Origin: Hydrogenophaga sp.
GTDB lineage: Bacteria > Pseudomonadota > Gammaproteobacteria > Burkholderiales > Burkholderiaceae_C
DNA: 64,000 bases
Direction: 5' to 3'
NCBI RefSeq assembly: GCF_050250835.1
Contig: NZ_JBFWNX010000019.1
Location: forward strand, 6,549 to 70,548
Below are positions 13,756 through 37,207 of this stretch, piece by piece. Numbering within the stretch: the first letter of the stretch is position 1; the number at the start of each line of letters is the position of its first letter. The notes below the pieces were generated by a model. It searched no databases and was not told the DNA's origin. It saw nothing but the letters and a program-made list of their open reading frames with translations. A program made the position numbers and the translations under genes.

Positions 13756-13799
13756 TCGCTTCGCGTGAACGACGGACACCAGAACCAGGAGCCGACGCC

Positions 13800-16138: not shown

Positions 16139-16163
16139 CCCGACCAACAAGCCGGAGCCGATC

Positions 16164-21892: not shown

Positions 21893-24800
21893 TCGCGCGC
21901 CTGATCCACTGGAGCATCGCCAACCGCTTCCTGGTTCTGATGGCCACGGTGATGATCACCGCCTGGGGCGTGGTGTCGATGCTGCGCACGCCTCTGGATG
22001 CGCTGCCCGACCTGTCGGACACCCAGGTCATCATCCGCACCAGTTGGCCCGGGCAGGCGCCGCAGCTGGTGGAAAACCAGGTCACCTACCCACTGACCAC
22101 CACCATGCTCTCGGTGCCCGGCGCCAAGGCGGTGCGCGGGTTCTCGATGTTTGGGGACAGCTTTGTCTACGTGCTGTTCGACGACGGCGTGGACCTGTAC
22201 TGGGCGCGCTCGCGGGTGCTCGAATACCTGAACCAGGTGCAGTCCCGGCTGCCGGCCACGGCCAAATCGTCACTCGGCCCCGACGCCACAGGCGTGGGCT
22301 GGATCTACCAGTACGCGCTGATCGACCGCAGCGGGCGGCAGGACCTGGCCCAGCTGCGCTCGCTGCAGGACTGGTTCCTGCGCTTCGAACTCAAGACGGT
22401 GCCCGACGTGGCCGAGGTCGCCAGCATCGGCGGCATGGTGCGCCAGCACCAGATCGTGCTCGACCCAGACAAACTGGCGACCTACGGCATCACGCAGCAG
22501 ATGGTGGGTGATGCCGTGGCGCGCGGCAACCAGGAGGCCGGCGGCTCGGTGCTGGAGCTTGGCGAGGCCGAATACGCGGTGCGTGCCAACGGCTACCTGA
22601 AAACCCTGGACGACTTCCGGGCGCTGCCGCTGAAGACCACCGACGCCGGTGTGTCGGTGCGGCTGGGCGACGTGGCGCGCGTGCAGATCGGGCCCGAAAT
22701 GCGGCGCGGCATCGGTGAGCTCAATGGCGAAGGCGAAGCGGTCGGCGGGGTGGTGGTCATGCGTTCGGGCAAGAACGCTTTGCAGACCATTGAAGCGGTC
22801 AAGGTTCGGCTGGCCGAATTGCAGCGTGGCCTGCCCGAGGGGGTGGAAATCGTGCCCGTGTATGACCGCTCTGGCCTGATTCAGCGCGCTGCCAACAACC
22901 TGGGCATCAAGCTGCTGGAGGAGTTTGGTGTGGTCGCCCTGGTGTGCGCGCTGTTCCTGTTTCACCTGCGCAGCGCCCTGGTGGCCATCGTTTCGCTGCC
23001 GCTGGGCATTCTGGTGGCCTTCATCGTGATGCAGCAGCAGGGCGTGAACGCCAACATCATGTCGCTCGGCGGCATCGCCATCGCCATTGGCGCCATGGTG
23101 GACGCGGCGGTGGTGATGATCGAAAACGCCCACAAGCACCTGGAGCGCTGGGCGCACGAACACCCGGGCGAGACGCTCGAAGGCGAGCCGCGCTGGCAAG
23201 TGATCGGCCACGCGGCGGCGGAGGTCGGCCCCGCCTTGTTCTTCTCGCTGCTGATCATCACCCTGAGCTTCATCCCGGTGTTCACCCTGCAGGCGCAAGA
23301 GGGGCGGCTGTTTGCGCCACTGGCCTACACCAAGACCTACGCCATGGCGGCGGCCGCCGGTCTGGCGGTCACCTTGATTCCGGTGCTGATGGGTTACCTG
23401 GTGCGCGGCCGCATTCCCGAAGAGACCGCCAACCCGCTCAACCGCGGACTCATCGCGCTGTACCGGCCGGTGCTGGATGCCGTTCTCAAGGGGCCGAAGC
23501 GCACTCTGCTGGTGGCCGCCGTGCTGCTGGGTTTGAGCGTCTGGCCGCTACAGCACATCGGCGCCGAGTTCATGCCGCCGATGGACGAGGGCGACCTGCT
23601 CTACATGCCGACCGCGCTGCCCGGTCTGTCGGCAGCCAAGGCCACCGAACTGCTGCAACTGACCGACCGCCTGATCAAGACCGTGCCCGAGGTGGCCAGC
23701 GTGTACGGCAAGGCGGGCCGCGCCGACAGCGCCACCGACCCGGCACCGCTGGAGATGTTCGAGACCACGATCCAGTTCAAGCCGCGCGAGCAATGGCGCG
23801 CGGGCATGACACCAGACAAACTGGTGGACGAACTCGACCGCACCGTGCGCGTGCCCGGCCTGGCCAACATCTGGGTGCCACCGATCCGCAACCGCATCGA
23901 CATGCTCGCCACCGGGATCAAGAGCCCGGTGGGGGTGAAGGTGGCCGGCGCCGACCTCGCCACCATCAACCGCCTCACGCAGCAGATTGAAACGGTGGTC
24001 AAGGGCGTGCCCGGTGTCACCAGCGCGCTGGCCGAGCGCCTGAGCGGTGGGCGCTACATCGACGTCGACATCCGCCGCGACGAAGCGGCGCGTTACGGTC
24101 TGAACATCGCCGACGTGCAGGACGTGATCTCGGGTGCGGTGGGCGGCATGAACATCGGCGAGACCGTGGAAGGGCTGCAGCGTTATCCGATCAACCTGCG
24201 TTACCCGCGCGACGCGCGCGACTCGCTCGCAGCACTGCGCGAGCTGCCCATCGTCACACCGCGCGGCCAGCGTCTGGTGCTGGCCGACGTGGCGCGCCTG
24301 AGCATCGCCGACGGTCCACCCATGCTGCGCAGCGAAAACGCACGCCTGGCCGGGTTCGTCTATGTGGACATCCGCGACCGCGACCTGCGCGGCGCCGTGC
24401 TGGACATGCAAAAGGCAGTGGCTGAGCAGGTGAATTTGCCGGCTGGCTATTCGGTGTCGTGGTCGGGCCAGTTCGAGTTCCTGGAGCGCGCCAGCGCCCA
24501 GCTCAAGCTGGTGGTGCCGTTCACGCTGCTGGTGATCTTCCTGCTGCTCTACCTGACCTTCCGCCGCCTCGACGAAGCCCTGCTCATCATGGCCACGCTG
24601 CCCTTCGCCCTCATTGGCGGCATCTGGCTGCTCTGGACCCTGGGGCACAACCTGTCGGTGGCCAGCGTGGTCGGCTTCATCGCGCTGGCCGGCGTGGCGG
24701 CCGAGTTCGGCGTGATCATGCTGCTGTACCTGAAGCAGGCCTGGGCCGCGCGGCTGGCCAAAGGGCTGGACACCGACACCGACCTGCTCGACGCGATCCG

Positions 24801-25059
24801 CGAAGGCGCGGTATTGCGCGTGCGGCCCAAGGCGATGACGGTGGCGGTGATCGTGGCCGGCCTGCTGCCCCTGTTCTGGGGCGCGGGGGCGGGCAGCGAG
24901 GTGATGCAGCGCATCGCCGCACCGATGGTGGGCGGCATGCTCAGCGCACCGCTGCTGTCCATGCTGGTGGTGCCGGTGGTTTATCGTCTGATGCGCAGAC
25001 CCAAGCGACAAGTCCAGCTGGGTTTGACGACCCAGGGCACCCCAACGCCATCCAACTGA
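21889..25059 (+). CDS. cusA: Cu(I)/Ag(I) RND efflux pump CusA
   Basis: 1056 aa HME-RND; [19 protein letters not shown] Met positions; [12 protein letters not shown]. Confidence 0.93.
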
Positions 25060-25065
25060 CCCTTC

Positions 25066-27348
25066 ATGCAAGCCTCCGAACAACCCATCCTGCGCGACCT
25101 GGTCCTGGTCGGCGGTGGCCACAGCCACGTGGTCGTCTTGCGCATGCTGGCCATGCAGCCCGAGCCCGGCCTGCGCATCACGCTGATCTGCACCGACATC
25201 GACACGCCCTACTCCGGCATGCTGCCGGGCTATATCTCGGGCCACTACCGCTTTGACGATGTGCACATCGACCTGGGCCGCCTGGCGGCCTTCGCCGGGG
25301 CGCGCTTCATCCACGGCGAGGTGACAGGTCTGGACCGCGCCAACCAGCGCGTGCAGCTGCGTGACCGGCCTGCCGTGCCCTACGACCTGCTCTCCATCAA
25401 CACCGGCTCCACGCCCAACATGCGCCAGATCAAGGGCGCACAGGCGCACGCGGTGCCGGTCAAGCCCATCGCCCAGTTCAACCAGCGCTGGCTGCACCTG
25501 CTGGCGCGCGTGCGCGAGTTGCACCGCCGTTTCACGATCGCGGTCGTGGGCGGCGGTGCGGGCGGGGTGGAGCTGGTGCTGTCCATGCAGTACCGGCTGC
25601 GCAACGAGCTGCAGAAACTCGGCCGCAACCCCGACCTGCTGCACTTTGTGCTGCTCACGGCGGGCGACACCCTGCTGCCGACACACAACCCCGGGGTCCG
25701 TGCCCGATTTGTGCGCGTGCTCAAGGAGCGCCATGTGGCCGTGCACACCCGTGCGGAAGTGAATCAGGTCTCGCCCGGCTGCCTGCACACACAGGACGGC
25801 CGCACCTTCGACGCCGATGAAACGATGTGGGTCACCCAGGCCGGCGGACCGGCCTGGCTGCAAAGTACCGGCCTGGCGCTGGACGAACACGGCTTCATCC
25901 AGGTCAACGACCGGCTCCAGACGCTGGACGACCCGAAGATCTTCGCCGCGGGCGACGTGGCCTCGTTCAGCCGCCGTCCGCTGGAAAAGGCCGGTGTGTT
26001 CGCGGTGCGCATGGGCCCGCCGCTGGTGAAAAACCTGCGCCTGGCCTTGCGTGGCCAGCCGCTGGTGGTCTACCACCCTCAACGCAGCTGGCTGGCGCTG
26101 ATCTCCACCGGCGACCGCTACGCCGTGGCCTCGCGCGGCTGGCTCGGCTTTGCTGGCGCCTGGGTCTGGACCTGGAAGGACAGCATCGACCGCCGCTTCA
26201 TGCGCAAATTCACCGAGCTGCCCGCCATGGCGCCCGGTACCGCGGCATCGGCCGCACCGGCCAGCCTCGCGCTCAGCGCCGAAGAATCGCGCCAGGCCAT
26301 CTCGGCCATCGCCATGCGCTGCGGCGGCTGCGGCGCCAAGGTGGGTGCCAGCATCCTGAGCCGCGCGCTGGGCAGCCTGCAGCCGGTCGAGCGCGACGAC
26401 GTGCTGATCGGTCTGCACGCCCCCGACGACGCCGCCGTGGTGCGCGTGCCGCCGGGCAAGGCGATGGTGCACACGGTGGACTTCTTCCGCAGCTTCATCG
26501 ACGACCCCTACCTGTTCGGCAAGGTCGCGGCCAACCACGCCCTGGGCGACATCTTCGCCATGGGCGCCGAGCCCCAGTCCGCCACCGCCGTCGCCAACGT
26601 GCCGCCGGGCCTGGAAGCCAAGGTCGAAGACCTGCTGTTGCAGATGATGACCGGCGCGGTCGAGGTGCTCAACGCCGCCGGTTGCGCCCTGGTCGGCGGC
26701 CACACCGGCGAAGGCCGCGAGCTGGCACTGGGCTTCGCCATCAACGGCCTGATCGACGACAGCATGGAAGGCGTCCTGCGCAAGGGTGGCATGTTGCCCG
26801 GTGACGTGCTGCTGCTGACCAAACCCATCGGCACCGGCACCCTGTTCGCCGCCCACGCGCGGCATTTCCCCAAAGGCCGCTGGATCGATGCGGCGCTGAC
26901 ATCGATGGTCGTGTCCAACCAGGCCGGCGCTCAGATTCTGCGGGCGCACGGCGCCACCGCCTGCACCGACCTGACCGGCTTCGGCTTGCTCGGGCATCTG
27001 GTGGAAATGACGCGCCCCTCGGGCGTGGACGCCGAACTGCAGCTGAGCGCCCTGCCCTTGCTGGACGGCGCCGTGGAATGTGTGCAGGCCGGCATCGTCA
27101 GCTCGCTGCAGCCGGCCAATGTGCGGCTGCGCCGCGCCTTGCGCAACGCCGACGCCTTTGTGAACGACCCGCGCTACCCGCTGCTGTTCGACCCGCAGAC
27201 GGCCGGTGGACTGCTGGCCAGCGTGCCGGCCGACCGGGCGGCCGACTGCATCCGGGCCCTCAAGGCCGCGGGCTACCCGCAGACCGCCGCCATCGGCCGC
27301 ATCAGCGGTGCGTCGGACGCGCTGGAGCCCGTGGTGCTGACGCCCTGA
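25066..27348 (+). CDS. selD: FAD-dependent oxidoreductase-selenophosphate synthetase fusion
   Basis: N-terminal GGGHSH, YSGMLPG, GGGAGG; C-terminal RCGGCGAK, DDAAV, HTVDFF, ACTDLTGFGLLGH, DPQTAGGLL. Confidence 0.9.
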   Translation: MQASEQPILRDLVLVGGGHSHVVVLRMLAMQPEPGLRITLICTDIDTPYSGMLPGYISGHYRFDDVHIDLGRLAAFAGARFIHGEVTGLDRANQRVQLRDRPAVPYDLLSINTGSTPNMRQIKGAQAHAVPVKPIAQFNQRWLHLLARVRELHRRFTIAVVGGGAGGVELVLSMQYRLRNELQKLGRNPDLLHFVLLTAGDTLLPTHNPGVRARFVRVLKERHVAVHTRAEVNQVSPGCLHTQDGRTFDADETMWVTQAGGPAWLQSTGLALDEHGFIQVNDRLQTLDDPKIFAAGDVASFSRRPLEKAGVFAVRMGPPLVKNLRLALRGQPLVVYHPQRSWLALISTGDRYAVASRGWLGFAGAWVWTWKDSIDRRFMRKFTELPAMAPGTAASAAPASLALSAEESRQAISAIAMRCGGCGAKVGASILSRALGSLQPVERDDVLIGLHAPDDAAVVRVPPGKAMVHTVDFFRSFIDDPYLFGKVAANHALGDIFAMGAEPQSATAVANVPPGLEAKVEDLLLQMMTGAVEVLNAAGCALVGGHTGEGRELALGFAINGLIDDSMEGVLRKGGMLPGDVLLLTKPIGTGTLFAAHARHFPKGRWIDAALTSMVVSNQAGAQILRAHGATACTDLTGFGLLGHLVEMTRPSGVDAELQLSALPLLDGAVECVQAGIVSSLQPANVRLRRALRNADAFVNDPRYPLLFDPQTAGGLLASVPADRAADCIRALKAAGYPQTAAIGRISGASDALEPVVLTP

Positions 27349-27383
27349 CGCGCCGGCCCAGCGCCACGGTGATTGCAAGCAAC

Positions 27384-27411
27384 TGTAAGGACCCGGGACA
27401 TCGCAGCGACT
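27384..27411 (+). promoter_or_regulatory. ECF promoter variant A (TGTAAG-N17-CGACT) for the TVP38-reductase operon
   Basis: TGTAAG 27384-27389, CGACT 27407-27411. Confidence 0.8.
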
Positions 27412-27468
27412 GAGGTTCAAGTCGGCAGCACATCGTTGCCAGATTTCGCCCCCAAGAACCACGTCCCC

Positions 27469-29619
27469 ATGAAACGAATCCTGATCCTTGCCACCGTCGT
27501 GCTGCTGGTGGCCGCCTATTTCGGGCTGGGGCTGAACCGGTACCTGACCCTCGCCGCCGTGCAGGAGCGCCTGGGGGAATTTGAAGCCATGCGTCAGGCG
27601 GCCCCTGTCGCCACGGCGCTGGGCTTCTTTGGCCTGTATGTGCTGGCCACCGCCTTGTCCCTGCCCGGCGCGGTCATCCTCACGCTGGCGGCGGGCGCCC
27701 TGTTCGGCTTGGTGGCCGGCACGCTGATCGTCTCGTTCGCCTCCAGCGTGGGCGCCACGCTGGCGTTTCTGGCCTCGCGCCACCTGCTGCGCGACGGCGT
27801 GCAGGCGCGCTTTGGCAACCGGCTCAAGGCCATCAACGACGGCATGGCCCAAGACGGCGCGCTGTACCTGTTCACGCTGCGCCTGATTCCGGTGTTCCCG
27901 TTTTTCCTGGTCAACCTGCTCATGGGCCTGACCCCGATCCGCACCGGCACCTATTACGCGGTCAGCCAGCTGGGCATGCTCGCGGGCACCCTGGTCTACG
28001 TCAACGCCGGCACGCAGCTCGGCCAACTCAACAGCCTCTCGGGCATCCTCTCGCCCGGCGTCCTGCTTTCTTTTGTCCTGCTCGGAGTGTTTCCCATGAT
28101 CGCCAAGTCCGCCCTCGGTTTTCTGCAACGTCGCCGGGTGTATGCCAAGTGGCAGCGCCCCAAGACCTTTGACCGCAACCTGGTGGTCATCGGTGGCGGC
28201 GCGGCGGGTCTGGTCACTTCTTACATCGCGGCGGCCGTCAAAGCCAAGGTCACGCTGGTCGAGGCGCACAAGATGGGCGGCGACTGCCTGAACTACGGCT
28301 GCGTGCCCAGCAAGGCGCTGATCAAGTCGGCCAAGCTGGCCACCCAGATGCGCCGCGCCGACCACTACGGCCTGGAGGCCGCCACCCCCGCCTTCAGCTT
28401 CAGGCAGGTGATGGCGCGGGTGCACAAGGTCATCAGCGAGGTGGCGCCACACGACAGCGTGGAGCGCTACACCGGGCTGGGCGTGGAGGTATTGCAGGGC
28501 CGCGCCCGCATCGTCGATCCCTGGACGGTCGAGATCGCGCTCAACGGCGGCGGCACCCAGCGCCTGACCACGCGCAGCATCGTCATCGCCGCCGGTGCCC
28601 GCCCCTTCGTGCCGCCGCTGCCCGGCCTGGACGATGTGGGCTACGTCACCAGCGACACGCTGTGGGACGAGTTCGCCCAACTTGACGCGCCCCCGGCCCG
28701 CCTGGTGGTGCTGGGCGGTGGACCGATCGGCTGCGAGCTGGCGCAGAGCTTTGCGCGCCTGGGCTCGCAGGTGACCCAGGTGGAAATGGCGCCGCGCATC
28801 ATGATCCGGGAAGACGAAGAGGTCTCGGAACTGGCGCGTGACTCGCTGGTGCGCGACGGTGTGGATGTGCTCACCGGCCACAAGGCGCTGCGCTGCGAGC
28901 GCGAGGGCGAACGCAAATTCATCGTGGTGGAGCACCAGGGCCAGGAAAAGCGCATCGAGTTCGACGCGCTGCTGTGCGCGGTCGGCCGCGTGGCGCGGCT
29001 GCAGGGCTACGGTCTGGAAGAGCTGGGCATCCCCACGCAGCGCACGGTGGTGGTCAACGAATACCTCGAAACGCTGTACCCCAACATTTTTGCCGCGGGC
29101 GACGTGGCCGGGCCGTTCCAGTTCACCCACACGGCCGGGCACCAGGCCTGGTACGCCGCCGTCAACGCCCTGTTCGGCAGCTTCAAGAAATTCAAGGTCG
29201 ATTATTCGGTGATCCCCTGGGCCACGTTCATCGAGCCCGAGGTGGCGCGTGTGGGCCTGAACGAACAGGACGCGAAGGAAAAGAAGATCCTTTACGAGGT
29301 CACGAAATACGGCATCGACGACCTGGACCGCGCCATCGCCGACGGCTCTGCGCACGGCTTCGTCAAGGTGCTGACCGTACCGGGCAAAGACCGCATTCTG
29401 GGCGTGACCATCGTGGGCGAACATGCCGGCGACCTGCTGGCCGAGTTCGTGCTGGCCATGAAACACAGCCTGGGATTGAACAAGATCCTGGGCACCATCC
29501 ACACCTACCCCACGCTGGCCGAGGCCAACAAATACGCCGCTGGGGAATGGAAACGCGCCCACGCGCCCCAGGGCGTGCTGGCCTGGCTGGGCCGCTACCA
29601 CGCCTGGCGCCGAGGCTGA
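27469..29619 (+). CDS. TVP38/SNARE-associated membrane domain fused to a pyridine nucleotide-disulfide oxidoreductase (MerA/LpdA-like)
   Basis: LFTLRLIPVFPF DedA/TVP38 motif; GGDCLNYGCVPSK; GGGPIG; no C-terminal CC. Confidence 0.9.
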   Translation: MKRILILATVVLLVAAYFGLGLNRYLTLAAVQERLGEFEAMRQAAPVATALGFFGLYVLATALSLPGAVILTLAAGALFGLVAGTLIVSFASSVGATLAFLASRHLLRDGVQARFGNRLKAINDGMAQDGALYLFTLRLIPVFPFFLVNLLMGLTPIRTGTYYAVSQLGMLAGTLVYVNAGTQLGQLNSLSGILSPGVLLSFVLLGVFPMIAKSALGFLQRRRVYAKWQRPKTFDRNLVVIGGGAAGLVTSYIAAAVKAKVTLVEAHKMGGDCLNYGCVPSKALIKSAKLATQMRRADHYGLEAATPAFSFRQVMARVHKVISEVAPHDSVERYTGLGVEVLQGRARIVDPWTVEIALNGGGTQRLTTRSIVIAAGARPFVPPLPGLDDVGYVTSDTLWDEFAQLDAPPARLVVLGGGPIGCELAQSFARLGSQVTQVEMAPRIMIREDEEVSELARDSLVRDGVDVLTGHKALRCEREGERKFIVVEHQGQEKRIEFDALLCAVGRVARLQGYGLEELGIPTQRTVVVNEYLETLYPNIFAAGDVAGPFQFTHTAGHQAWYAAVNALFGSFKKFKVDYSVIPWATFIEPEVARVGLNEQDAKEKKILYEVTKYGIDDLDRAIADGSAHGFVKVLTVPGKDRILGVTIVGEHAGDLLAEFVLAMKHSLGLNKILGTIHTYPTLAEANKYAAGEWKRAHAPQGVLAWLGRYHAWRRG

Positions 29620-29632
29620 AAGGAAAACCACC

Positions 29633-30679
29633 ATGGCCAAGACACCCGCCCCGCAGGTCCATCTGCAACTGCCCGACGGCCCTGAACGCGACGCCCTGCG
29701 CGCCGGTCTGCTGGCCCTGCAATGCATCCCGGTGAACCTGCCGCCGCCGGGTGCAGCGCTCACAGAGCAGCTGGAACACCTGGCGCAGGACCCCAGGGCG
29801 GTGGTGTTCCTGGACATCTCCAATGCCCTGCCCAGGGTCACTCACCGGTTCGACCGCATCCTCAAGACCTGGCCCCAGGCCCTGAAGGCCCGAACGGTGC
29901 TGACCCGGCTGGCCGCCGGGCACGTGAGCCCCGCCGACCGCACCTGGGTGCAGTCGCTGGGGTTTGCCGACCTGATCGCTTCGTTCGAAGACCACGCGCC
30001 TGCATCGCCCTTGCGGCGATCGCTGGACATGGTCGCGGCCACCGTGGGCTTGCCTGCGCTGGCGGCCGGGGACCTTGACCGCTACCTGCGCGCCGTCCCC
30101 ACCGCGCCGTCCAGCCTGTCGCCCCGCGCGCTCATCCGCGCTCGCACAGGACTTGAAGCCGAGGCGCTGGCGGACCTGCTGCAGTTCAAGCTCGACATCC
30201 GCGACCGCAGCTACCACCTCAAGAAGTACCCCGCCTGTTTTCTCGCGACCGAGGCGGTGGCCTGGATGGGCTCGCATTTCAAACTGGGGCGCGCGGAGGT
30301 GATCGAAGTTGGCGTGGCCTTGCAGACCCTGGGCCTGCTCTACCACGTAGCCCACGAACAGGCTTTTGCCGACGAGGACCTGTTCTTCCGGCTGCGCGCA
30401 CCGGCCCAGTTGCCCAACGTGAACCTGGGGCTGGTCCTGCAGACCCTGCGCGATCGATTGGTGGTGGTGGACCGCAGCTACCTCGGCAAGGACTACCCGA
30501 GCTGCTGGATCGGCCAAGAGGCGGTCGATGCGCTCTGCGCCAAACGCAACATCACGCGCCATGAGAGCCAGCTGATCCTGCACCGGCTGATGCAGTTCGG
30601 GTGCTTTGAACACGTTGTCGGCGAACATGGTTTCATCGACGGCAACTTCTTCTACCGGTTCAACGAAGGCCTGGCCTGA
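29633..30679 (+). CDS. Protein with two DEP domains and a degenerate receiver-like N-terminus
   Basis: IRDRSYHLKKYPACFLATEAVAW...LYHV..EQAF.DEDLFFRL and VVDRSYLGKDYPSCWIGQEAVD...FEHV..EHGFIDGNFFYRF. Confidence 0.8.
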   Translation: MAKTPAPQVHLQLPDGPERDALRAGLLALQCIPVNLPPPGAALTEQLEHLAQDPRAVVFLDISNALPRVTHRFDRILKTWPQALKARTVLTRLAAGHVSPADRTWVQSLGFADLIASFEDHAPASPLRRSLDMVAATVGLPALAAGDLDRYLRAVPTAPSSLSPRALIRARTGLEAEALADLLQFKLDIRDRSYHLKKYPACFLATEAVAWMGSHFKLGRAEVIEVGVALQTLGLLYHVAHEQAFADEDLFFRLRAPAQLPNVNLGLVLQTLRDRLVVVDRSYLGKDYPSCWIGQEAVDALCAKRNITRHESQLILHRLMQFGCFEHVVGEHGFIDGNFFYRFNEGLA

Positions 30680-30696
30680 ACCGACATCACGCACCG

Positions 30697-31371
30697 ATGC
30701 GCTGTTCCATCATCGTTCCCATGCTCAACGAAGCGCAGGGCTTGCCTCGCCTGCTGGCGCGGCTGCGCGCGCTAGAGCGCCAGGGATGCGAGGTGCTGAT
30801 CGTGGACGGCGGCAGCGACGACGGCGGTGCTGAGCGGGCTGCGCAGGCTGGGTTTCGGGTGCTGTCGTCGCCGCGGGGGCGCGCCCGGCAAATGAACCAG
30901 GGCGCCGCACACGCCACAGGCGACGTGCTGCTGTTCCTGCACGCCGACACTCAACTGCCTGACGGCGCCCTTGTCACCCTCCGCCGAGCACTGCAGCGGT
31001 CCGGCGCGCCCTGGGGCCGGTTCGACGTGGTCATCGAGGGCCGCCACCCCATGCTGCGCGTGGTGGCCTGGCTGATGAACCTGCGCTCGCGCTGGACCGG
31101 CATCGCCACCGGCGACCAGGCGATCTTCGTCACACGCGAGGCCTTCGACACCGTGGGCGGCTACCCCGACCAGCCCCTGATGGAGGACATCGAACTGTCC
31201 AGCCGCCTGCTCCATCGCGCCCGCCCGGTGTGCATTCGCGACCGTGTGCAGACCTCGGGGCGCCGCTGGGAAAGCAGGGGCGTCTGGCGCACCGTGCTGC
31301 TGATGTGGCAACTGCGCTGGGCCTACTGGCGTGGCGCACCGGCCGTGCAGCTGGCACAACGTTACCGGTGA
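30697..31371 (+). CDS. GT2 glycosyltransferase (TIGR04283-like)
   Basis: IIVPMLNEA, VDGGS.D, GRARQMN.GA, FLHADT, TGDQAIFV, LMEDIE, TSGRRW. Confidence 0.9.
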   Translation: MRCSIIVPMLNEAQGLPRLLARLRALERQGCEVLIVDGGSDDGGAERAAQAGFRVLSSPRGRARQMNQGAAHATGDVLLFLHADTQLPDGALVTLRRALQRSGAPWGRFDVVIEGRHPMLRVVAWLMNLRSRWTGIATGDQAIFVTREAFDTVGGYPDQPLMEDIELSSRLLHRARPVCIRDRVQTSGRRWESRGVWRTVLLMWQLRWAYWRGAPAVQLAQRYR

Positions 31372-31378
31372 CCGCCTC

Positions 31379-32008
31379 ATGGCCGATGAACCCCGCATCG
31401 TCATCTTCGCCAAGGCACCCGTGGCGGGCCTGGCAAAGACCCGGCTGATCCCGGCGCTGGGTGCACAGCGGGCGGCCCGACTCGCTGCCAAGATGCTGAA
31501 CCACGCGGTGGAACAGGCCCTGGCCAGCGAGGTCGGTCCGGTGGAGCTGTGCGTGACGCCAGCGCCGCAAGACCCGATGTGGGCCGGGCGGTTGCCCAGG
31601 CATGCAGCGTTGACCTTCAGTGACCAGGGCGATGGCGATCTGGGCGAGCGCATGGCGCGGGCCGCACGGCGCACGCTGGAGGCCGGTCGGCCGGTGCTGC
31701 TGATGGGAACCGACTGCCCCGCCCTCACCGCAGAGCGCCTGCGCTCCGCCAGCGAGGCCCTGATGACGAGCGATGCCGTCATGATCCCGGCAACCGATGG
31801 CGGCTATGTGCTGCTGGGACTGCGACGTTTTGCCGTCAGCCTGTTCCATGACATCGCATGGAGCACCGAGCACGTGGCAGCAGCCACGCGAGATCGGCTT
31901 TGCGCCCTGGGTTGGCCCTTGAACGAAAAGGCACCGCTACACGACATCGACGAGCCCGATGACCTGCGTTGGCTCCCGACCGACTGGGACGGCGTTAGTC
32001 GGGTCTGA
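31379..32008 (+). CDS. TIGR04282/DUF2064 CofC-like nucleotidyltransferase-fold protein
   Basis: IFAKAP..G.AKTRL, QGDGDLGERM, GTDCP, PATDGGYVLLG, WST, DIDEPDD. Confidence 0.88.
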   Translation: MADEPRIVIFAKAPVAGLAKTRLIPALGAQRAARLAAKMLNHAVEQALASEVGPVELCVTPAPQDPMWAGRLPRHAALTFSDQGDGDLGERMARAARRTLEAGRPVLLMGTDCPALTAERLRSASEALMTSDAVMIPATDGGYVLLGLRRFAVSLFHDIAWSTEHVAAATRDRLCALGWPLNEKAPLHDIDEPDDLRWLPTDWDGVSRV

Positions 32009-32606
32009 ACACCTGCATGCCCGTGGCGATGCGCGTGAGGATCGTGAGCGCGCACAAGGCGGAAAACCCATAGGCCAACACACTGAACGCTTCAGGCCAC
32101 AGGCACATCAGCACGAACACCGTGATGGTTTCTGTGCTCTCGGAGAGCCCCCCCAGGTAGTAGATGCCCTTGCCAGCGTACGCGACGCTTGACAGCCCTC
32201 TTTGAGCGGCCAGCACCGCAAAAGCCAGAAAACTGCTGCCCGTACCGACGAACGAAAACAGCAACACAGTGGAAGCGAGGGCATGCTGCTCTGGCTTGGC
32301 GAGCGCGAACGCCATCGGAATGGACGCATAGAAAAGAAAATCCAGGGCGATGTCGAGGAACGCGCCTCGGTCCGTGGGCTGTGTCAATCGGGCCATGGTG
32401 CCGTCCAGCCCATCGGCAAGGCGATTCAGAAAGATCGTGATCAAGGCCCACTGAGACATCCCCAGAGCGATCAACGGCACTGAAAGCAGCCCGATCACAA
32501 AGCCCACCCAAGTGAGGTGATCGGCCTTCAATCCCCAGTTCAACAGCCGCAAGGCAACGGCTTGCAGCGGGGATTTGAGTCGCTGGTTGAGCGTTGCGTC
32601 AAACAT
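31995..32606 (-). CDS. ynjF: CDP-alcohol phosphatidyltransferase family (YnjF-like)
   Basis: DGLDGTMAR...GAFLDIALD signature. Confidence 0.88.
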   Translation of the reverse strand: MFDATLNQRLKSPLQAVALRLLNWGLKADHLTWVGFVIGLLSVPLIALGMSQWALITIFLNRLADGLDGTMARLTQPTDRGAFLDIALDFLFYASIPMAFALAKPEQHALASTVLLFSFVGTGSSFLAFAVLAAQRGLSSVAYAGKGIYYLGGLSESTETITVFVLMCLWPEAFSVLAYGFSALCALTILTRIATGMQVFRPD

Positions 32607-33246
32607 GCTGGGCCTGCCACTGGTGAATGTCCATGACCCGCCCACCCTGAGGCACATCGCCTGGGTCGTGGGTGACCAACAGGGTAGGAATGCCTTGACG
32701 CGCGATTTGCTCGAACACCAGCTCGCGGAACTGCACACGCAAACTGGCGTCGAGCTTGGAAAATGGTTCGTCCAGCAGCAGCGCACAAGGCTCGGCCAGC
32801 AGCGCCCGCATCAAACTCACACGGGCGCGCTGCCCGCCCGACAATGTGGCGGGGTCGCGGTCGTGGAATCCGGCCAGACCGATGTCCTGCAACGTCTGCT
32901 CCACCCGGGCGCGCCGCGCGGCAGCGCTACCCACCGCGCCCGGCAAGGCAAAGGCCAGGTTCTGCCCCACGCTCAGGTGCGGAAACAGCAGGTCGTCCTG
33001 GAACAGGATGCCGATGCCCCGCGATTCCACCGGCAGGCCATCGCGCCGCTGGCCGTCCAGCCACAGCTCGCCACTGGCCTGGAAAGCGGGGTCGAGATCG
33101 CCCACCAGCCAGTTCAGCAAGGTGGATTTGCCCGAGCCCGAGGCGCCGGTGATGGTCGCCACGGCACCAGCCTCCACCCGCAGGTTCAGGTTCGTGACCA
33201 GCGCCAGGCGGCCCTGCGCAATGGTGAGGTTCTTGATGTCCAGCAT
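32599..33246 (-). CDS. ynjD: ABC transporter ATPase (YnjD-like)
   Basis: GASGSGKS, LSGGQ, LLDEPF. Confidence 0.88.
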   Translation of the reverse strand: MLDIKNLTIAQGRLALVTNLNLRVEAGAVATITGASGSGKSTLLNWLVGDLDPAFQASGELWLDGQRRDGLPVESRGIGILFQDDLLFPHLSVGQNLAFALPGAVGSAAARRARVEQTLQDIGLAGFHDRDPATLSGGQRARVSLMRALLAEPCALLLDEPFSKLDASLRVQFRELVFEQIARQGIPTLLVTHDPGDVPQGGRVMDIHQWQAQHV

Positions 33247-33247
33247 G

Positions 33248-34915
33248 TCAGCGAAGTCCTTTGCGGCAACGACCCGCCCATTGGGCCATCAGCGCAGCGA
33301 GCCCGAAACCCAGCAGCGGCAAGGCGATCTGCAGCAGCGCCTGCACCGCCAGCACGCGGCGGTTGCCGCCGGCGCTCAGGCCCACCGCCTCGGTCGTGAC
33401 CGTCACAAACCGACCACCGCCCGCAAACAGCGTGGGCAGGTACTGCGCCACGCTGACGGCAAAGCCGACCGCCAGCGCGGCCAGGATGGGCTTGATCAGC
33501 ATCGGCCACTTCACGCGCAGACAGGCCCCCAGGGGGGACTGCCCGAGCGCGCGCGCGGTGGTCATGAGGCGGCGGTCAAAGGCGCGGTAGGGGCCGACCA
33601 GCGTGAGCACCATGTACGGCAGCACCCACAGCAGGTGGCTCCAGACCAGGCCGGCGGCGGTGCCGTCGCCCTGCAGGCGCAGCAGCGCGGCGTACTGCGC
33701 CGCCACCAGAGGCAGCGCGGGAATGATCAGCGGCACATACAGCACGGCGTTGAAGCGCTGCGGCCCCCACTCCAGCCAGACCAGGGTGGCCGGCAGGCAC
33801 AGCAGCGTGGCGGCAGCCGCCAGCCACAGCGTGGTCCAGAACGGTGCCCAGTCGGCCTGCATCCAGGTGCGCAGCGACAAGGCGTCGGGCCACAGTGCCG
33901 GGAAGAACCAGGTGTCGGCCAGCGACCACAGCACCAGCACCGCCACCACCGCATAGCCCACCAGATACAGGGGCTGGTGCAGGCCCAGCCGCGACGCTGT
34001 TGCCGCTGGCTTTCGTTCGCCCGCCGGGTAGGCCGCGCGCCGCGCGATCTGCCGCCAGGCCCACCGCGCACCACCGGCGATCAGCAGGAACAGCCCCAGC
34101 AGCACCAGCGAAGCCGCCGCCCCTTTGGCCTGCGTGGCCGCATCGGGGTCGGTCAGCCACTGCCAGACCAGCACGGCCAGTGTGGGTGGCGTGCTCGGCC
34201 CCAGGATCACCGCCATGTCCACCACCGACAGGCCATAGGCGAGCACCGCCGCCAGCGGCCAGCCCAGGCGCGGCAGCAGCTGGGGCCACAGCACATGACG
34301 CCAAGTCTGTGCGCGGTTGTAGCCCAGGGATCGGGCCACCACCATGTGCCGCTGCACCGTCTGCTCGCCCAGCACCGCCACCAGCACCCAGAGCAGGAAC
34401 CAGCTTTCTTTCAAGCCCAGCGCCAAGGCCAGACTCAGCGCAAAGGGGTCCTGCACCGTGGTCCATGGCGGCGGCTCCAGCCAGCCCAGCAACGGCGCCA
34501 CCGCCCGCACCAGCCAGCCGGACGGCGAGAGAAGGAAAAAAAGCCCGACGGCAAACGCCGCGTGGGGCACCGACAGCAGCAAGGGCAGCCGCCGCTGCAG
34601 CGCCAGCCAGCGCGGCCCCGGATACAGCGCGGTGGCCAGCCCGGCCGCCAGTCCCACCCCCAGCGCAGTGCCCAGCCCGGCAGACAGCAGGGTCGCGCGC
34701 AAGGCCTGTGGCCACTGGGTGTCGGCCCACAGCGACTGCCAGACCGCCAGGTCCAGGGCCGGCACGAGCGCCCAGTACAGGCCCGGCAGCATGGGGCCGA
34801 GGATCAGCGCCACCGGCAGCGCCGCCAGCCAGACCGGCGACAAACGCCGTCGGGCTCCCGAAGAGCCGGGTGGCGAGCTGCGCCGGATCAGCGGGAACCG
34901 TAGCGCTTGAGCCAC
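33248..34915 (-). CDS. ynjC: ABC transporter permease (YnjC-like; start uncertain)
   Basis: Two permease repeats, PHAAFAVG, AVSVAQYLPTLFAGGGR. Confidence 0.85.
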   Translation of the reverse strand: MAQALRFPLIRRSSPPGSSGARRRLSPVWLAALPVALILGPMLPGLYWALVPALDLAVWQSLWADTQWPQALRATLLSAGLGTALGVGLAAGLATALYPGPRWLALQRRLPLLLSVPHAAFAVGLFFLLSPSGWLVRAVAPLLGWLEPPPWTTVQDPFALSLALALGLKESWFLLWVLVAVLGEQTVQRHMVVARSLGYNRAQTWRHVLWPQLLPRLGWPLAAVLAYGLSVVDMAVILGPSTPPTLAVLVWQWLTDPDAATQAKGAAASLVLLGLFLLIAGGARWAWRQIARRAAYPAGERKPAATASRLGLHQPLYLVGYAVVAVLVLWSLADTWFFPALWPDALSLRTWMQADWAPFWTTLWLAAAATLLCLPATLVWLEWGPQRFNAVLYVPLIIPALPLVAAQYAALLRLQGDGTAAGLVWSHLLWVLPYMVLTLVGPYRAFDRRLMTTARALGQSPLGACLRVKWPMLIKPILAALAVGFAVSVAQYLPTLFAGGGRFVTVTTEAVGLSAGGNRRVLAVQALLQIALPLLGFGLAALMAQWAGRCRKGLR

Positions 34916-36063
34916 TCGGTCTCCAGCGCCTCCACCCAGCTGGCGTGGGGCTCGGCCAGCGTGGGCACGGCCTCGGCCAGTGCACCGGGCGCGGTCTTGC
35001 GCATGGCGGCCTGGGTGGCGGACGGCAGCTTGTTCACGTCCAGCACGCTGCCATCACCCCAGACGGTGATGTCGGCCTTGCGGGCCTGGGCCTCGGGCGA
35101 CAGCAGGAAATTGGCCACCACCTGAGCGCCCGCCGCCGCCTTGGCGTTGACGGGGATGCCGACGAAGTGCACGTTGCCAATGGTGCCGCCGGTGAAGCCG
35201 AAGCTGTAGGCGGTGGCGGGCAGCTGGCGCGTGGCAATCAGGTTGGCGGCCTCGTTGGGGTTGAAGGTCAGCGAGAGCTTGAGCTCGCCGTCGGCCAGCA
35301 TGCGGTGCATCTCGGCCGCACTGGCGGGAAAGGCCTTGCCACCGCGCCAGAGCTGCGGGTGCAACTGGTCCAGGTACGCCCACAGCGGCGCGGTCGAGGT
35401 GTTGAAGCTGGCGGGTGTGACAGGCACCTGCAGCACCTTGCGATCCGGGGCCAGCTCGATCAGCGCCTGTTTGACGAAGGTGGTGCCGTGAAAGTCGGTC
35501 GGCTTGGGGTAGCTCACCCGACCCGCGTTGGCCTTGGCAAAGGCCAGCAAGTCTGCGGCCGAACGGGGCGGCACGGGTGTCTTGGCCTTGTCGGCGATGA
35601 AGGTCAGCTGCGCGGTGCCCCAGGGCGCCTCATAGCCGTCGGTGGGCACCGAGAAATCGCTGCGCACCGGCTTGTTCAGGTCGACCGCGCCCCAGTTGGG
35701 CAATGCTTCGGCCCAGGGACCGAACAGCAAGCCGCCTTGCTTGAGGTTGCGGAAGTTCTCGCCGTTGATCCACATCAGGTCGATCGAACCATCGGTGCGG
35801 CGCCCGGCTGCCACCTCGGTCTGCACCCGCTTGACCACCTCGGCCGTGTCCGTCACCTTGACGTGACGAAGCTCCACGCCATAGCGGCTCTTGACCTGCT
35901 GCGCCACCCAGCCGATGTAGGCATTGGTTGCCTCACTACCGCCCCAGGCGTTGAAAAACACAGTCTGGCCTTTGGCATCGGCCTCGGTCTTGGCCCAGTC
36001 GGCGCTCGCGGCCAAAGGGAACGACAGGCTGAGGGCCAGGGTGGTCAGGGGAAACCATTTCAT
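34888..36063 (-). CDS. ynjB: ABC transporter substrate-binding protein (YnjB-like)
   Basis: Signal peptide; GQTVFFNAWGG, DLMWINGENF, EAPWG, GNVHFVGIP. Confidence 0.88.
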   Translation of the reverse strand: MKWFPLTTLALSLSFPLAASADWAKTEADAKGQTVFFNAWGGSEATNAYIGWVAQQVKSRYGVELRHVKVTDTAEVVKRVQTEVAAGRRTDGSIDLMWINGENFRNLKQGGLLFGPWAEALPNWGAVDLNKPVRSDFSVPTDGYEAPWGTAQLTFIADKAKTPVPPRSAADLLAFAKANAGRVSYPKPTDFHGTTFVKQALIELAPDRKVLQVPVTPASFNTSTAPLWAYLDQLHPQLWRGGKAFPASAAEMHRMLADGELKLSLTFNPNEAANLIATRQLPATAYSFGFTGGTIGNVHFVGIPVNAKAAAGAQVVANFLLSPEAQARKADITVWGDGSVLDVNKLPSATQAAMRKTAPGALAEAVPTLAEPHASWVEALETEWLKRYGSR

Positions 36064-36100
36064 GCGTGAACGCTCCGTATAAGAGGATGGGAAAGCCCAT

Positions 36101-36128
36101 AGTCGGATGAGCACCCCAAATGCTTACA
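36101..36128 (-). promoter_or_regulatory. ECF promoter variant A (TGTAAG-N17-CGACT) for ynjBCDF
   Basis: Plus strand AGTCG 36101-36105, CTTACA 36123-36128. Confidence 0.8.
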
Positions 36129-36142
36129 GGCAAGGGCACGCT

Positions 36143-37207
36143 TTAGCCGGCCAGCGCTCCCTGCAGCGCATGAAATTCGGTCAGCATGCGTTCGATGGTT
36201 CGCGGTTTGAGGTAGTCGTTCACCCTGCCCCGCACATGAACGATCAGCGCATCCTCGCTGTGCTGCGTGGACCAGTCTTCGCCATCGCCACCGCGGCCCT
36301 GGTGGTTGGCCGACTCGGCCAGCCATTTGGCACACCAGGTCACCGACCACAACCACATCAACTCACGCAGCGGCACCAGCGCGCCCCGGCAAGGCCCCGC
36401 GATGCCCTCCCCGACCGCCTGCGCCCAGGTTACGTACGCTCGCGCCACAGCGTCGATGGACAGCTCAAAAGCGGCCTCACGGTCCCAGGTCGTTGACGTG
36501 TACAGACTGGCGTGCGCCAGGTCGAGCGGTGGGTAGCTGTAGCGCAGCTTCTCCAGATCCACCAGCACCGCCTTGCCCGTCGATGTGATCAGAAAATTGC
36601 CCGGGTGGGCGTCGAAGGTGATCAGCCGCTGCGGACAAAGCTGTACCAGAGGCGCCATGCGCGGCGTCACATCCTGCAACCGCGCCTTCAAGACCCGAGC
36701 CGATTCGGCGGGAACGGCCGAATGGTCCAGATACCGGGCCTGGGCTTCGATCAACGCGACGAGACCTGCCAGCGGGTCCGACTCATCCAGCAGGGGCGCG
36801 CGGTCTGGTGGTGGCGGCACTGGCAACGCATGGATCGCAGCAAGGGCCTGCATGATGGACCCCAGATGCTCCGGTTGGCTGGCGGGAGTGCCGATGATTT
36901 CTTCGACCAGCAAGGCACCCCGCGGCAGATGCTCAGACGGGCCCAGCACCGCTTCCAGCTGCGGCACGTGCCCGGAGGGCTCTGCACGCCGAAAGCAGGT
37001 GCTCTGGTACAGCAGGTTGTCCTGGGCGACCAGCGCCATCTGGCTCTGTTTGGGGATTCGGGCCAGCAGACCCGTGCCTTTCAAACGCACATGCCAGTGG
37101 GCCAGACCTTTGTCCGGCAGGGCCTCCAGAACGACAGGCCTGGGAAACCGACCCGACAGCTGCTTGTCCAGCAGGGTCAGTATTGAGTCAAATTGCATGA
37201 AGCTCAT
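36143..37207 (-). CDS. APH/choline-kinase-like phosphotransferase
   Basis: LLARIPK (ATP Lys), ITFDAHPGNFL (Brenner-like), VLVDLEK. Confidence 0.8.
   Translation of the reverse strand: MSFMQFDSILTLLDKQLSGRFPRPVVLEALPDKGLAHWHVRLKGTGLLARIPKQSQMALVAQDNLLYQSTCFRRAEPSGHVPQLEAVLGPSEHLPRGALLVEEIIGTPASQPEHLGSIMQALAAIHALPVPPPPDRAPLLDESDPLAGLVALIEAQARYLDHSAVPAESARVLKARLQDVTPRMAPLVQLCPQRLITFDAHPGNFLITSTGKAVLVDLEKLRYSYPPLDLAHASLYTSTTWDREAAFELSIDAVARAYVTWAQAVGEGIAGPCRGALVPLRELMWLWSVTWCAKWLAESANHQGRGGDGEDWSTQHSEDALIVHVRGRVNDYLKPRTIERMLTEFHALQGALAG

Follow-up and report, generated by a model that had tools for sequence, protein, structure and literature searches.

A bacterial tandem DEP protein resembling DEPTOR, encoded behind a SigF-type ECF promoter-like motif

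DEP domains are textbook signalling modules of eukaryotes, familiar from Wnt, mTOR, RGS and the Rac and Rap GEFs. A gene of Hydrogenophaga sp. that appears to encode two of them inside an operon raises the question of whether its product truly carries such domains and, if so, what they would do in a bacterial cell. We analysed this gene within a stretch of 64,000 nucleotides (the window). The original prediction, made from the sequence alone, described two DEP repeats behind a degenerate receiver-like region, and suggested that the protein might scaffold or recruit the enzymes of a neighbouring pathway at anionic lipids, or sense a lipid product.

Two DEP folds in a bacterial protein

The gene and the parts of its product are as follows.

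29633-30679, plus strand: tandem-DEP gene; 348-aa product, predicted cytoplasmic, with a receiver-like domain, a helical linker and a tandem DEP
29633-29992, plus strand: N-terminal alpha/beta domain, aa 1-120, receiver/flavodoxin-like fold (alignments, AF2, Foldseek; no Pfam match)
29993-30157, plus strand: helical linker, aa 121-175 (AF2 helices 126-138, 145-154 and 164-172)
30158-30406, plus strand: DEP domain 1, aa 176-258 (Pfam; best DEPTOR match is the first DEP, residues 48-118)
30425-30670, plus strand: DEP domain 2, aa 265-346 (Pfam best stretch 276-343; best DEPTOR match is the second DEP, residues 153-218)

The reading frame begins with ATG, and an AAGGA ribosome-binding site lies 9 nt upstream. 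Two stretches of the 348-aa protein are recognized by the Pfam DEP model (PF00610) with an E value of 1.1e-28 and 99.4 bits, compared with a cut-off of 32.7. No TM-like segments were found in the protein and no PDZ domain was detected by Pfam; the polypeptide finishes at the second DEP. The AF2 model (mean pLDDT 87.7, pTM 0.85) contains two DEP folds at roughly aa 176-256 and 265-345 (pLDDT 85-98), each composed of a helix, a beta-hairpin arm, two helices and two short C-terminal strands.

A profile search of the PDB ranks the tandem DEP of DEPTOR, an mTOR regulator of animals, first (7ped/7dkl; E 6e-34), in a single collinear alignment that includes both domains, followed by P-Rex1/2, Epac and Dvl. 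Foldseek returns the DEPTOR DEPt with an E value of 5e-12 and the Dvl2 DEP with an rmsd of 1.8-2.0 Å across 86-89 columns, and its matches also include P-Rex1, Epac2 and the pleckstrin DEP. The two repeats proposed originally are thus borne out by Pfam, AF2, the PDB profile search and Foldseek, and the gene product is confirmed as a bacterial two-DEP protein that closely resembles the DEPTOR tandem. Two long minus-strand ORFs that overlap the gene (2097 aa, 23548-29841; 443 aa, 29363-30694) were rejected as shadow frames of G+C-rich coding DNA.

A possible receiver-like fold at the N terminus

The AF2 model of the N-terminal domain shows five strands alternating with helices, and a model of this domain alone has a pLDDT of 84. 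When Foldseek was run with the separate model, weak receiver matches were obtained (E 0.02-0.1, TM to target 0.6-0.68), together with flavodoxin-like reductases. Pfam matched no family, Response_reg (PF00072) included, when the N-terminal domains of 16 family members were searched at E ≤ 10. Response_reg is likewise absent from the full-length window protein at E ≤ 0.01, and the PDB profile search gave no match for this domain. The suggestion of a degenerate receiver-like region therefore finds support at the level of the fold but not at the level of sequence.

Asp61, which ends strand 3, is invariant in the family alignments, and Thr91 is nearly so. The receiver catalytic set is otherwise incomplete: the residues that follow strand 1 vary among homologues (PDG, PTG, PTA, PAV, APS, ATD), and the Lys after strand 5 is not conserved in the same alignments.

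The operon and its surroundings

The gene is flanked, and the promoter motif discussed below is positioned, as follows.

27384-27410, plus strand: SigF-type ECF promoter-like motif TGTAAGG-N16-CGAC, preceding the DEP-containing operon
27469-29619, plus strand: first operon gene; fusion of a DedA/VTT membrane domain with an FAD pyridine-nucleotide disulfide reductase (CxxxxC)
30697-31371, plus strand: GT2 glycosyltransferase, NCBIfam TIGR04283 (285.8 bits, cut-off 182)
31331-32008, plus strand: DUF2064/CofC-like nucleotidyltransferase-type protein, NCBIfam TIGR04282 (200 bits, cut-off 134), last gene of the operon
31995-37207, minus strand: convergent companion block (Pfam), with the five genes that follow
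36143-37207, minus strand: APH-like kinase (Pfam)
34888-36114, minus strand: ynjB-like binding protein (Pfam)
33248-34915, minus strand: ynjC-like permease (Pfam)
32599-33246, minus strand: ABC ATPase (Pfam)
31995-32786, minus strand: CDP-alcohol phosphatidyltransferase (Pfam)
12226-13353, minus strand: ECF sigma gene
13342-13368, plus strand: promoter motif by the ECF sigma gene and bufferin operon
13800-16931, plus strand: bufferin-type module MbnB/DUF2063/DoxX/C92 (tblastn with the proteins of homologue locus L001; Pfam)

The DEP gene is embedded between the flavoreductase and GT2 genes, as had been noted from the sequence, with gaps of only 13 nt and 17 nt, respectively. No terminator-like site was found between the operon genes, and within the operon the promoter motif occurs only upstream of the reductase gene. 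Pfam assigns VTT_dom, Pyr_redox_2 and Pyr_redox_dim to the reductase, NCBIfam calls it an FAD-containing oxidoreductase, and its N-terminal half has 6-7 TM-like segments. We place its start at ATG 27469 rather than at TTG 27373, because the promoter motif would lie inside the TTG-extended ORF and a conserved ATG follows the motif.

Although the TIGR04283 and TIGR04282 transferases pass their cut-offs, arsenosugar biosynthesis was rejected as the function of these neighbours. The genome, which is 99.99% complete, lacks the ArsS radical-SAM enzyme (TIGR04167; best 19.6 bits, cut-off 300), and thus the label 'arsenosugar pathway' does not describe what they do. The ECF sigma/bufferin block (12226-16931) is the remainder of an ancestral island. 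It is separated from the DEP operon in the window by mer, cus and SelD-fusion genes; at locus L001 the reductase-DEP operon directly follows the C92 gene.

An ECF-type promoter motif accompanies the family

The motif was detected only through comparison of orthologous leaders, and the leaders of the two operons share no word of eight or more bases. Loci L001-L004, L009, L010 and L035 retain it ahead of their orthologous reductase genes, and in the window it also stands before the ECF sigma gene and before the bufferin operon. The looser pattern TGTAAS-N15-18-CGWC has six matches in the window, compared with 0.37 expected.

Stand-alone members of the family show the same signature. TGTAAG-N15-17-CGAC lies 46-119 nt upstream of nine such homologues (L005, L006, L007, L011, L014, L023, L034, L035 and L036), where the background of 0.019 per 450 nt predicts about 0.6 over 31 loci, and near-matches occur at L015, L018 and L019. 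The EAL-DEP, MscS-DEP, DEP-reductase and L042 genes have no such motif upstream. The Caulobacter sigmaF site, GTAACC-N16-CGAA, shares the layout of the window motif (PMC3511200), and bufferin operons are members of the SigF copper-stress regulon (PMC11626156). From motif similarity and enrichment, the DEP gene is probably a member of a putative SigF-type metal/oxidative-stress regulon.

A compact family that is rare in bacteria

We collected 126 homologues with 38-99% identity, and all 120 that were listed carry PF00610. The full-length architecture is kept from 35 to 99% identity, with 33 invariant columns. In a domain tree, the family's DEP1 domains group in one clade (support 99) and its DEP2 domains in another (support 98), and the G+C content of the gene matches that of its surroundings. 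The statement that DEP domains are rare in bacteria holds in our samples: they were found in 13 of 300 genomes of the same bacterial family, none of 400 elsewhere in the phylum, 1 of 300 in a second phylum and none of 14 controls. The DEP gene family itself is present in about 4% of sampled genomes of the window's bacterial family.

A search over 1.84 billion representatives returned 4007 matches, 289 of them at E ≤ 1e-30. The top matches outside the family are multi-DEP proteins, which rank high because scores sum over their 5-7 domains; among ten looked up, the one that carried an organism name comes from a stramenopile alga. Neither a donor nor a direction of transfer can be inferred from these 4007 matches. 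Literature searches on bacterial or prokaryotic DEP domains, DEP with EAL and DEP with MscS found no study of bacterial DEP proteins, and searches on TIGR04283, TIGR04282 and DUF2064 yielded nothing useful for the DEP protein.

DEP domains are also present in other bacterial architectures, including TM-periplasmic-TM-EAL-DEP-DEP and MscS-DEP proteins. The first DEP of the EAL-DEP protein groups beside the DEP1 domains of the family (support 84). In a single case, L040, a DEP domain precedes a reductase of the same subfamily in one polypeptide and takes the place of the DedA domain; along its full length this reductase shares 41% identity with the reductase half of the window's DedA-FAD protein. 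The fusion fits a membrane-proximal role.

Linkage to the reductase and to the pathway genes

Among 31 homologue loci, 18 carry reductase, TIGR04283, TIGR04282 or ynjBC genes or the bufferin/ECF module, and 13 have none of the system's genes inside the stretch examined. Linkage to operon genes recurs in at least five separate clades with differing gene orders. In 12 of the 31 loci the reductase gene adjoins the DEP gene or is near it; either gene may come first, and the clades concerned fall on both sides of the tree. In the Ramlibacter/Caenimonas clade the DEP gene stays with the reductase, and the GT2, DUF2064 and APH genes are divergent and 4 kb away. The recurrent immediate partner gene is the DedA-FAD reductase, not the GT2 and CofC-like enzymes.

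Ties to the remaining genes are looser. GT2, DUF2064 and APH kinase genes recur near DEP genes in three clades, and homologues of the kinase or of the binding protein and permease adjoin DEP-family genes at L018, L019, L035 and L042; at L042 the DEP gene lies between ynjB-like and ynjC-like genes. TIGR04283 is present in 8 of 13 DEP-positive genomes and in 65 of 287 DEP-negative ones, a co-occurrence that is only indicative because related genomes do not count as independent observations. TIGR04283 is lacking from three to five DEP-positive genomes, some of them incomplete. Conversely, 65 of the 73 TIGR04283-positive genomes have no DEP gene at all, which together with the 13 unlinked loci indicates that the DEP protein is an accessory rather than a pathway scaffold. 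The apparent regulatory link, a SigF-type ECF motif wherever the family sits, is firmer than the pathway links.

Possible functions

The domain identity, rarity in bacteria, conserved linkage and shared promoter motif established above give a setting from which we infer membrane docking, a partner and a regulatory effect. With confidence a little short of even, we favour a stress-induced, membrane-proximal adaptor or regulator, in which a pseudo-receiver and a DEPTOR-like tandem DEP, encoded in an ECF-promoter operon, dock near the DedA-reductase. Such a soluble cytoplasmic signalling or adaptor protein would share a transcript with the DedA-anchored FAD disulfide reductase, started at a SigF-type ECF sigma promoter. 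Because it shares an ECF-type promoter motif with the reductase, we propose that it is made under metal or oxidative stress. The tandem DEP may then attach the protein to the inner membrane from the cytoplasmic side, through a membrane protein, a lipid or both, with the DedA-reductase as the most likely partner. The conserved face of the N-terminal domain, which includes D61, T91-R92 and H97, could bind a partner or a small ligand, and the protein would regulate or position a reductase-centred stress response. A bolder version, in which a DEPTOR-type tandem is a stress-induced docking module that brings a pseudo-receiver, sensing a ligand or a partner, to the DedA-anchored reductase at the inner membrane and shares ancestry, as a unit, with the DEPTOR and P-Rex tandems, is possible but doubtful.

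The original proposal would instead make the protein a lipid-binding scaffold or sensor dedicated to the pathway of TIGR04283, TIGR04282, the kinase and the CDP-alcohol transferase, recruiting the enzymes to an anionic lipid or sensing the lipid product. The position of the gene between those for the reductase and GT2, the three clades with GT2, DUF2064 and kinase genes nearby and the arrangement at L042 agree with this idea, and the DEPTOR tandem does bind phosphatidic acid (PMC8439649). The recurrent operon linkage that a scaffold would call for is real. However, most pathway-bearing genomes dispense with DEP, the unlinked loci and the many stand-alone DEP genes with their own ECF-type promoter motif point away from the pathway, and in Ramlibacter/Caenimonas it is the reductase that is kept. 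A net-charge test of the family's DEP domains gave no signal for lipid or DNA binding: charge is near-neutral and variable (-4 to +4 among family members; in the window protein, -1 and -2), which indicates no conserved polybasic surface. The part of the proposal that invoked recruitment to anionic lipids thus finds no support in the sequence, and we regard the dedicated scaffold as unlikely. The same charge data bear on a transcription factor in which the DEPs are winged-helix DNA binders, the receiver-like domain is the input and the adjacent operons are the targets. DEP is a winged-helix fold, a receiver joined to a winged helix is the commonest layout of bacterial response regulators, the gene adjoins possible targets, and one EAL-DEP relative has sub-threshold IclR and MarR HTH matches. 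Yet basic residues are not conserved in helix 3, which would have to serve for DNA recognition (consensus AVAVGQAL..LG and A...LHRLMQFG). The net charge of the domains is close to zero or negative, and the other bacterial DEP fusions are membrane proteins and enzymes rather than DNA-binding contexts. An ECF-type promoter motif already stands before the operon, 65 TIGR04283-positive genomes manage without DEP, and we know of no DEP domain that binds DNA; a transcription factor is quite improbable.

The promoter motif could also be read as the sign of a feedback component of an ECF sigma/anti-sigma switch, perhaps one that works by partner switching, with the pseudo-receiver as its binding site for the anti-sigma factor. 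PhyR is a precedent for ECF systems regulated by a protein with a receiver, the gene has its own ECF-type motif in many genomes, and an ECF sigma gene lies within a few kb at L001, L011, L018, L019, L034 and L038. The protein nevertheless contains neither a sigma-like nor an anti-sigma-like domain, only about 4% of genomes in the bacterial family carry the gene whereas the ECF/bufferin system and TIGR04283 are far commoner, and in most linked loci the immediate neighbour is the reductase rather than a sigma/anti-sigma pair, which makes this role very unlikely. A functionless, inert relic of transfer from a eukaryote, suggested by the eukaryotic type of domain, the narrow and patchy distribution and best matches to animal proteins, is hardly credible for an architecture that persists at 35-99% identity with 33 invariant columns, whose DEP1 and DEP2 each form one clade, whose G+C content is local, whose promoter motif is conserved and whose domain type is reused in other bacterial architectures.

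If the bolder reading is correct, in which the tandem shares ancestry with those of DEPTOR and P-Rex, then DEP-based membrane signalling would not be an invention of eukaryotes alone, or else a whole tandem crossed between domains of life. A compact bacterial family with a DEPTOR-like tandem is now defined in a testable physiological setting, namely a putative SigF-type metal/oxidative-stress regulon, with a membrane-tethered disulfide reductase for its likely partner and a natural DEP-reductase fusion. This setting offers a tractable genetic route to what a DEP tandem recognizes, and adds a candidate accessory regulator to the DedA-reductase/TIGR04283/TIGR04282 stress genes, which are themselves poorly understood. 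Should membrane docking fail, an orphan family with clear limits and a distinct regulatory signature would still stand.

Comparison with known systems

The putative regulon resembles the SigF/NrsF copper-chromate regulon of Caulobacter in its promoter layout, GTAAsN-N16-CGAx (PMC3511200), and in the ECF sigma gene that lies beside an MbnB/DUF2063/DoxX operon in the window's island (PMC3511200, PMC11626156). The motif bases differ (GTAAGG...CGAC in the window; PMC3511200), and the available text of the two reports mentions no DEP protein, DedA-reductase or TIGR04283/04282 gene (PMC3511200, PMC11626156).

The N-terminal domain, with its predicted five-stranded alpha/beta fold and an Asp that ends strand 3, resembles AmiR, the KaiA N-domain, the TadZ ARD and the FleR REC. 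These pseudo- or atypical receivers are among its Foldseek matches, but the matches are weak (E 0.01-0.1) and come with no sequence-profile similarity. Unlike receivers, the domain conserves neither the acidic pair nor the Lys, and histidine kinases do not recur near DEP genes.

The TM-EAL-DEP-DEP, MscS-DEP and DEP-FAD reductase proteins have in common with the window protein that they carry DEP domains, and all are located at the membrane or close to it. In those proteins, however, DEP is covalently joined to an effector or channel and the genes lack the ECF motif, whereas the window protein is a free-standing two-module protein with its own N-terminal domain.

P-Rex1 and P-Rex2 with their tandem DEPs, Epac and Dishevelled have the DEP fold and its sequence signature in common with the window protein (E 2e-28 to 1e-5; Dvl2 rmsd 1.8-2.0 Å). 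Their DEPs are membrane- or receptor-docking modules within large eukaryotic GEF and Wnt signalling proteins. Both window DEPs best match the second DEP of P-Rex1, and thus no position-specific correspondence exists with that protein. DEPTOR, which has two consecutive DEPs, aligns collinearly with the window protein along 173 residues, about 28% of them identical (E 6e-34), and each window DEP best matches its counterpart in order. The ligands of the DEPTOR tandem include phosphatidic acid and the FAT domain of mTOR (PMC8439649). Orthology is not implied, because DEPTOR is described as vertebrate-specific (PMC8439649). Unlike DEPTOR, the window protein has no PDZ domain, phosphodegron linker or mTOR partner; it is bacterial, carries a receiver-like domain at its N terminus, and is encoded behind an ECF-type promoter motif in a metal-stress island.

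A bacterial protein with two DEP domains

Despite the high G+C content of the window (62–70%) and its many shadow ORFs, 29633–30679 (+) is a real gene, which starts at an ATG preceded at 9 nt by an AAGGA site and whose 348-aa product has 126 homologues (38–99% identity), with a Pfam DEP match in all 120 of those listed. Two antisense ORFs, 23548–29841 (−, 2097 aa) and 29363–30694 (−, 443 aa), overlap the genes from cusA to the DEP gene and were taken as shadow frames of G+C-rich coding DNA. The tandem DEP pattern of the original prediction is recovered by Pfam DEP, which matches two stretches of the protein with 99.4 bits (cut-off 32.7); NCBIfam holds no model for the protein. An AF2 model built from 20 diverse homologues (pLDDT 87.7, pTM 0.85) has the following layout.

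N-terminal alpha/beta domain: strands 8–12, 32–35, 57–61, 88–91 and 113–115, alternating with helices
Linker: three helices
Two DEP folds: about 176–256 and 265–345

Structural comparison of this model using Foldseek bears out the DEP fold, with matches to the DEPTOR DEP tandem (E 5e-12) and to the Dvl2 DEP domain (rmsd 1.8–2.0 Å). When a family profile was run against all PDB sequences, the DEPTOR tandem ranked first (E 6e-34), followed by P-Rex1/2, Epac, Iml1/DEPDC5, Dishevelled and GPR155. Residues 175–347 and DEPTOR 35–218 form a single collinear alignment and, taken alone, DEP1 has the first DEPTOR domain (48–118) and DEP2 the second (153–218) as its top DEPTOR match.

Genomes with DEP genes in a whole-genome six-frame search with PF00610
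Own genome: one DEP gene
Same GTDB family: 13 of 300 genomes, 11 of 201 genera
Rest of the phylum: 0 of 400 genomes
Second phylum: 1 of 300 genomes
Named control genomes: 0 of 14

These counts agree with the expectation that DEP domains are rare in bacteria. All 13 positive genomes of the family carry a tandem, and one also has a single-DEP gene (L040). The named loci come from Hydrogenophaga, Rhodoferax, Polaromonas, Ramlibacter, Caenimonas, Brachymonas, Piscinibacter and Rubrivivax. In public sources the label is 'hypothetical' or 'DEP domain-containing protein', and no paper on bacterial DEP proteins was found in the library searched.

Genomic setting and linkage

The DEP gene lies, as originally described, between a flavoreductase and a glycosyltransferase gene, with gaps of 13 nt and 17 nt.

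27469–29619 (+): DedA/VTT–FAD disulfide reductase (DedA-reductase), 716 aa
29633–30679 (+): DEP protein
30697–31371: glycosyltransferase GT2 (TIGR04283)
31331–32008: DUF2064 protein (TIGR04282), overlapping the GT2 gene

No terminator-like site was found between these genes. Convergent genes on the opposite strand encode an APH-like kinase, a ynjBCD-like transporter and a CDP-alcohol phosphatidyltransferase. Upstream of the operon are a flavoprotein–SelD fusion, cusCBA and mer genes and, beyond them, a bufferin-type module (MbnB, DUF2063, DoxX, C92) with an ECF sigma gene. In the closest isolate genome (Hydrogenophaga aromaticivorans, L001), no cus or SelD-fusion homologues were found upstream, and a gap of about 1.4 kb separates the reductase–DEP operon from the bufferin module that precedes it, so the proximity of copper-pump and selenium genes in the window is secondary. 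TIGR04283 and TIGR04282 carry the NCBIfam name 'arsenosugar biosynthesis glycosyltransferases'; the window's own genome (99.99% complete) contains no ArsS radical-SAM enzyme (top TIGR04167 score 19.6 bits, cut-off 300), and a second TIGR04283 copy lies at C4:301957–302616.

Linkage was surveyed at 31 non-redundant loci by tblastn and clustering of all neighbouring ORFs, and mapped onto a maximum-likelihood protein tree. One or more genes of the system accompany the DEP gene at 18 loci, which belong to five or more clades and lie on either side of the midpoint root: the reductase at 12 loci, GT2 TIGR04283 at 11, the bufferin/ECF module at 9, and also the kinase or the binding protein/permease. 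Homologues thus do show linkage to this operon.

Hydrogenophaga: reductase–DEP–GT2–DUF2064
Piscinibacter group: the same order plus a C92 gene
Ramlibacter/Caenimonas: DEP–reductase–DUF547, with kinase–GT2–DUF2064 divergent
L042: DEP between ynjB-like and ynjC-like genes
L008, L023: DEP beside a stand-alone reductase
L032, L034, L038: DEP beside the bufferin module only

The other 13 loci show none of these genes, and DEP is absent from 65 of the 73 genomes with TIGR04283 among 300 of the family, which makes the DEP protein an accessory of the system rather than part of its core. TIGR04283 is present in 8 of the 13 DEP-positive genomes. Two further genes recur near DEP-family genes, for DUF547 (L003, L004, L010, L016, L018, L019, L035) and for a PNP_UDP_1 phosphorylase (L001, L003, L004, L009, L032, L038).

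An ECF-type promoter-like motif

The most general result of the analysis is a regulatory link. When leaders from orthologous reductase genes were aligned, a conserved motif came to light, TGTAAG(G)-N16-CGAC; read as TGTAAS-N15-18-CGWC, the pattern occurs six times in the window (0.37 expected).

27384–27410: before the DedA-reductase gene
9607–9633 (+): before an ECF sigma gene
13342–13368 (+): before the bufferin operon
4562–4588 (−), 6697–6723 (−) and 36102–36128 (−): further copies

The first copy falls inside the longest reductase ORF, called from TTG 27373, which places the true start at the conserved ATG, 27469. The copy at 36102–36128 overlaps the called start (36114) of the ynjB-like gene, so that either this start or the minus-strand genes' transcription unit is provisional.

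Nine DEP genes with their own leader (L005, L006, L007, L011, L014, L023, L034, L035, L036) have the strict motif (TGTAAG-N15-17-CGAC) 46–119 nt upstream, against a background of 0.019 per 450 nt, and near-matches precede three others (L015, L018, L019). At five of the nine, no gene of the system lies close by. Judged by these motifs, the family looks like a member of a SigF-type ECF regulon wherever it is encoded. The sigmaF site of Caulobacter, GTAACC-N16-CGAA, is laid out in the same way (PMC3511200), and the SigF copper-stress regulon includes bufferin operons (PMC11626156).

Other bacterial DEP architectures

The other bacterial DEP architectures seen here are all at or near the membrane.

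L028: 9779–12052 (−), EAL–DEP–DEP
L029: 9803–12148 (−), EAL–DEP–DEP
L030: 146–2440 (+), EAL–DEP–DEP
L031: 5134–7446 (+), EAL–DEP–DEP
L021: 7664–10273 (+), MscS–DEP
L046: 1474–3009 (−), MscS–DEP
L040: 9818–11797 (+), DEP–FAD disulfide reductase, DEP at aa 32–101 (N-terminal)

The EAL proteins (758–782 aa), from four genomes of the same family, have an external part of about 200 aa between two TM-like segments; EAL (c-di-GMP phosphodiesterase-type) and the DEP tandem follow. Their external part contains a Cys and resembles that of CSS-domain EAL proteins; the L031 gene is directly downstream of cusBA homologues. MscS channels with a C-terminal DEP occur in two genomes of another phylum. The L040 reductase can be aligned over its full length to the reductase half of the window DedA-reductase (41% identity, CxxxxC included), and DEP therefore takes the place of the DedA/VTT domain; its genome also has a receiver-like–DEP–DEP gene (L020). 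In a domain tree, the family DEP1 domains fall into one clade (support 99) and the DEP2 domains into another (98), which makes the tandem ancestral to the family; EAL–DEP domain 1 sits beside family DEP1 (support 84).

The N-terminal domain

The proposed 'degenerate receiver' may hold at the level of fold, and no further. Modelled separately (pLDDT 84), the domain gives weak Foldseek matches to receivers (E 0.02–0.1, TM to target 0.6–0.68), with FleR, ArcA, RR468, TadZ and VicR intermixed with flavodoxin-like reductases; the whole protein also returned the pseudo-receivers AmiR and KaiA. In contrast, no Pfam family matched any of 16 N-domains at E ≤ 10, and neither the acidic pair after strand 1 nor the Lys after strand 5 is conserved in alignments. 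By profile and catalytic residues, the protein is outside the receiver family. The best conserved residues are D61, invariant at the end of strand 3, L90-T91-R92 at the end of strand 4 (T91 nearly invariant), G96-H97 in the next loop, R103, W105 and G110-F111. We read these as a putative site for a ligand or partner rather than for phosphorylation.

Possible function

In eukaryotes, DEP domains bring proteins to membranes by engaging acidic lipids or membrane proteins. The window protein has no enzymatic domain and no TM-like segment was found in it. The bacterial fusions, above all the replacement of DedA by DEP on one and the same reductase type, point to the cytoplasmic membrane face and to the reductase as partner. 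We therefore prefer, with slightly less than even confidence, an adaptor or regulator that is induced by stress and works together with the DedA-reductase. Under stress, the protein would be made, dock at the cytoplasmic membrane face and act with the DedA-reductase. The net charge of the DEP domains is near-neutral and variable (−4 to +4 across the family; −1 and −2 in the window protein), which argues against a lipid anchor of a simple electrostatic kind; the main docking mode may be onto protein.

The earlier idea of a pathway scaffold is weakened by co-occurrence, as 65 of 73 TIGR04283 genomes do without DEP. DNA binding by the DEP domains is less likely, since the would-be recognition helices have no conserved basic residues and DEP is fused to a DNA-related module in no case seen here. 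Action inside the sigma/anti-sigma switch is conceivable, at low probability.

In DEPTOR, which ranked first in the PDB search, the DEP pair has both phosphatidic acid and the FAT domain of mTOR as binding partners (PMC8439649). The PDZ domain of DEPTOR has no counterpart in the window protein, which belongs to the DEP domain family and stands outside the DEPTOR family.
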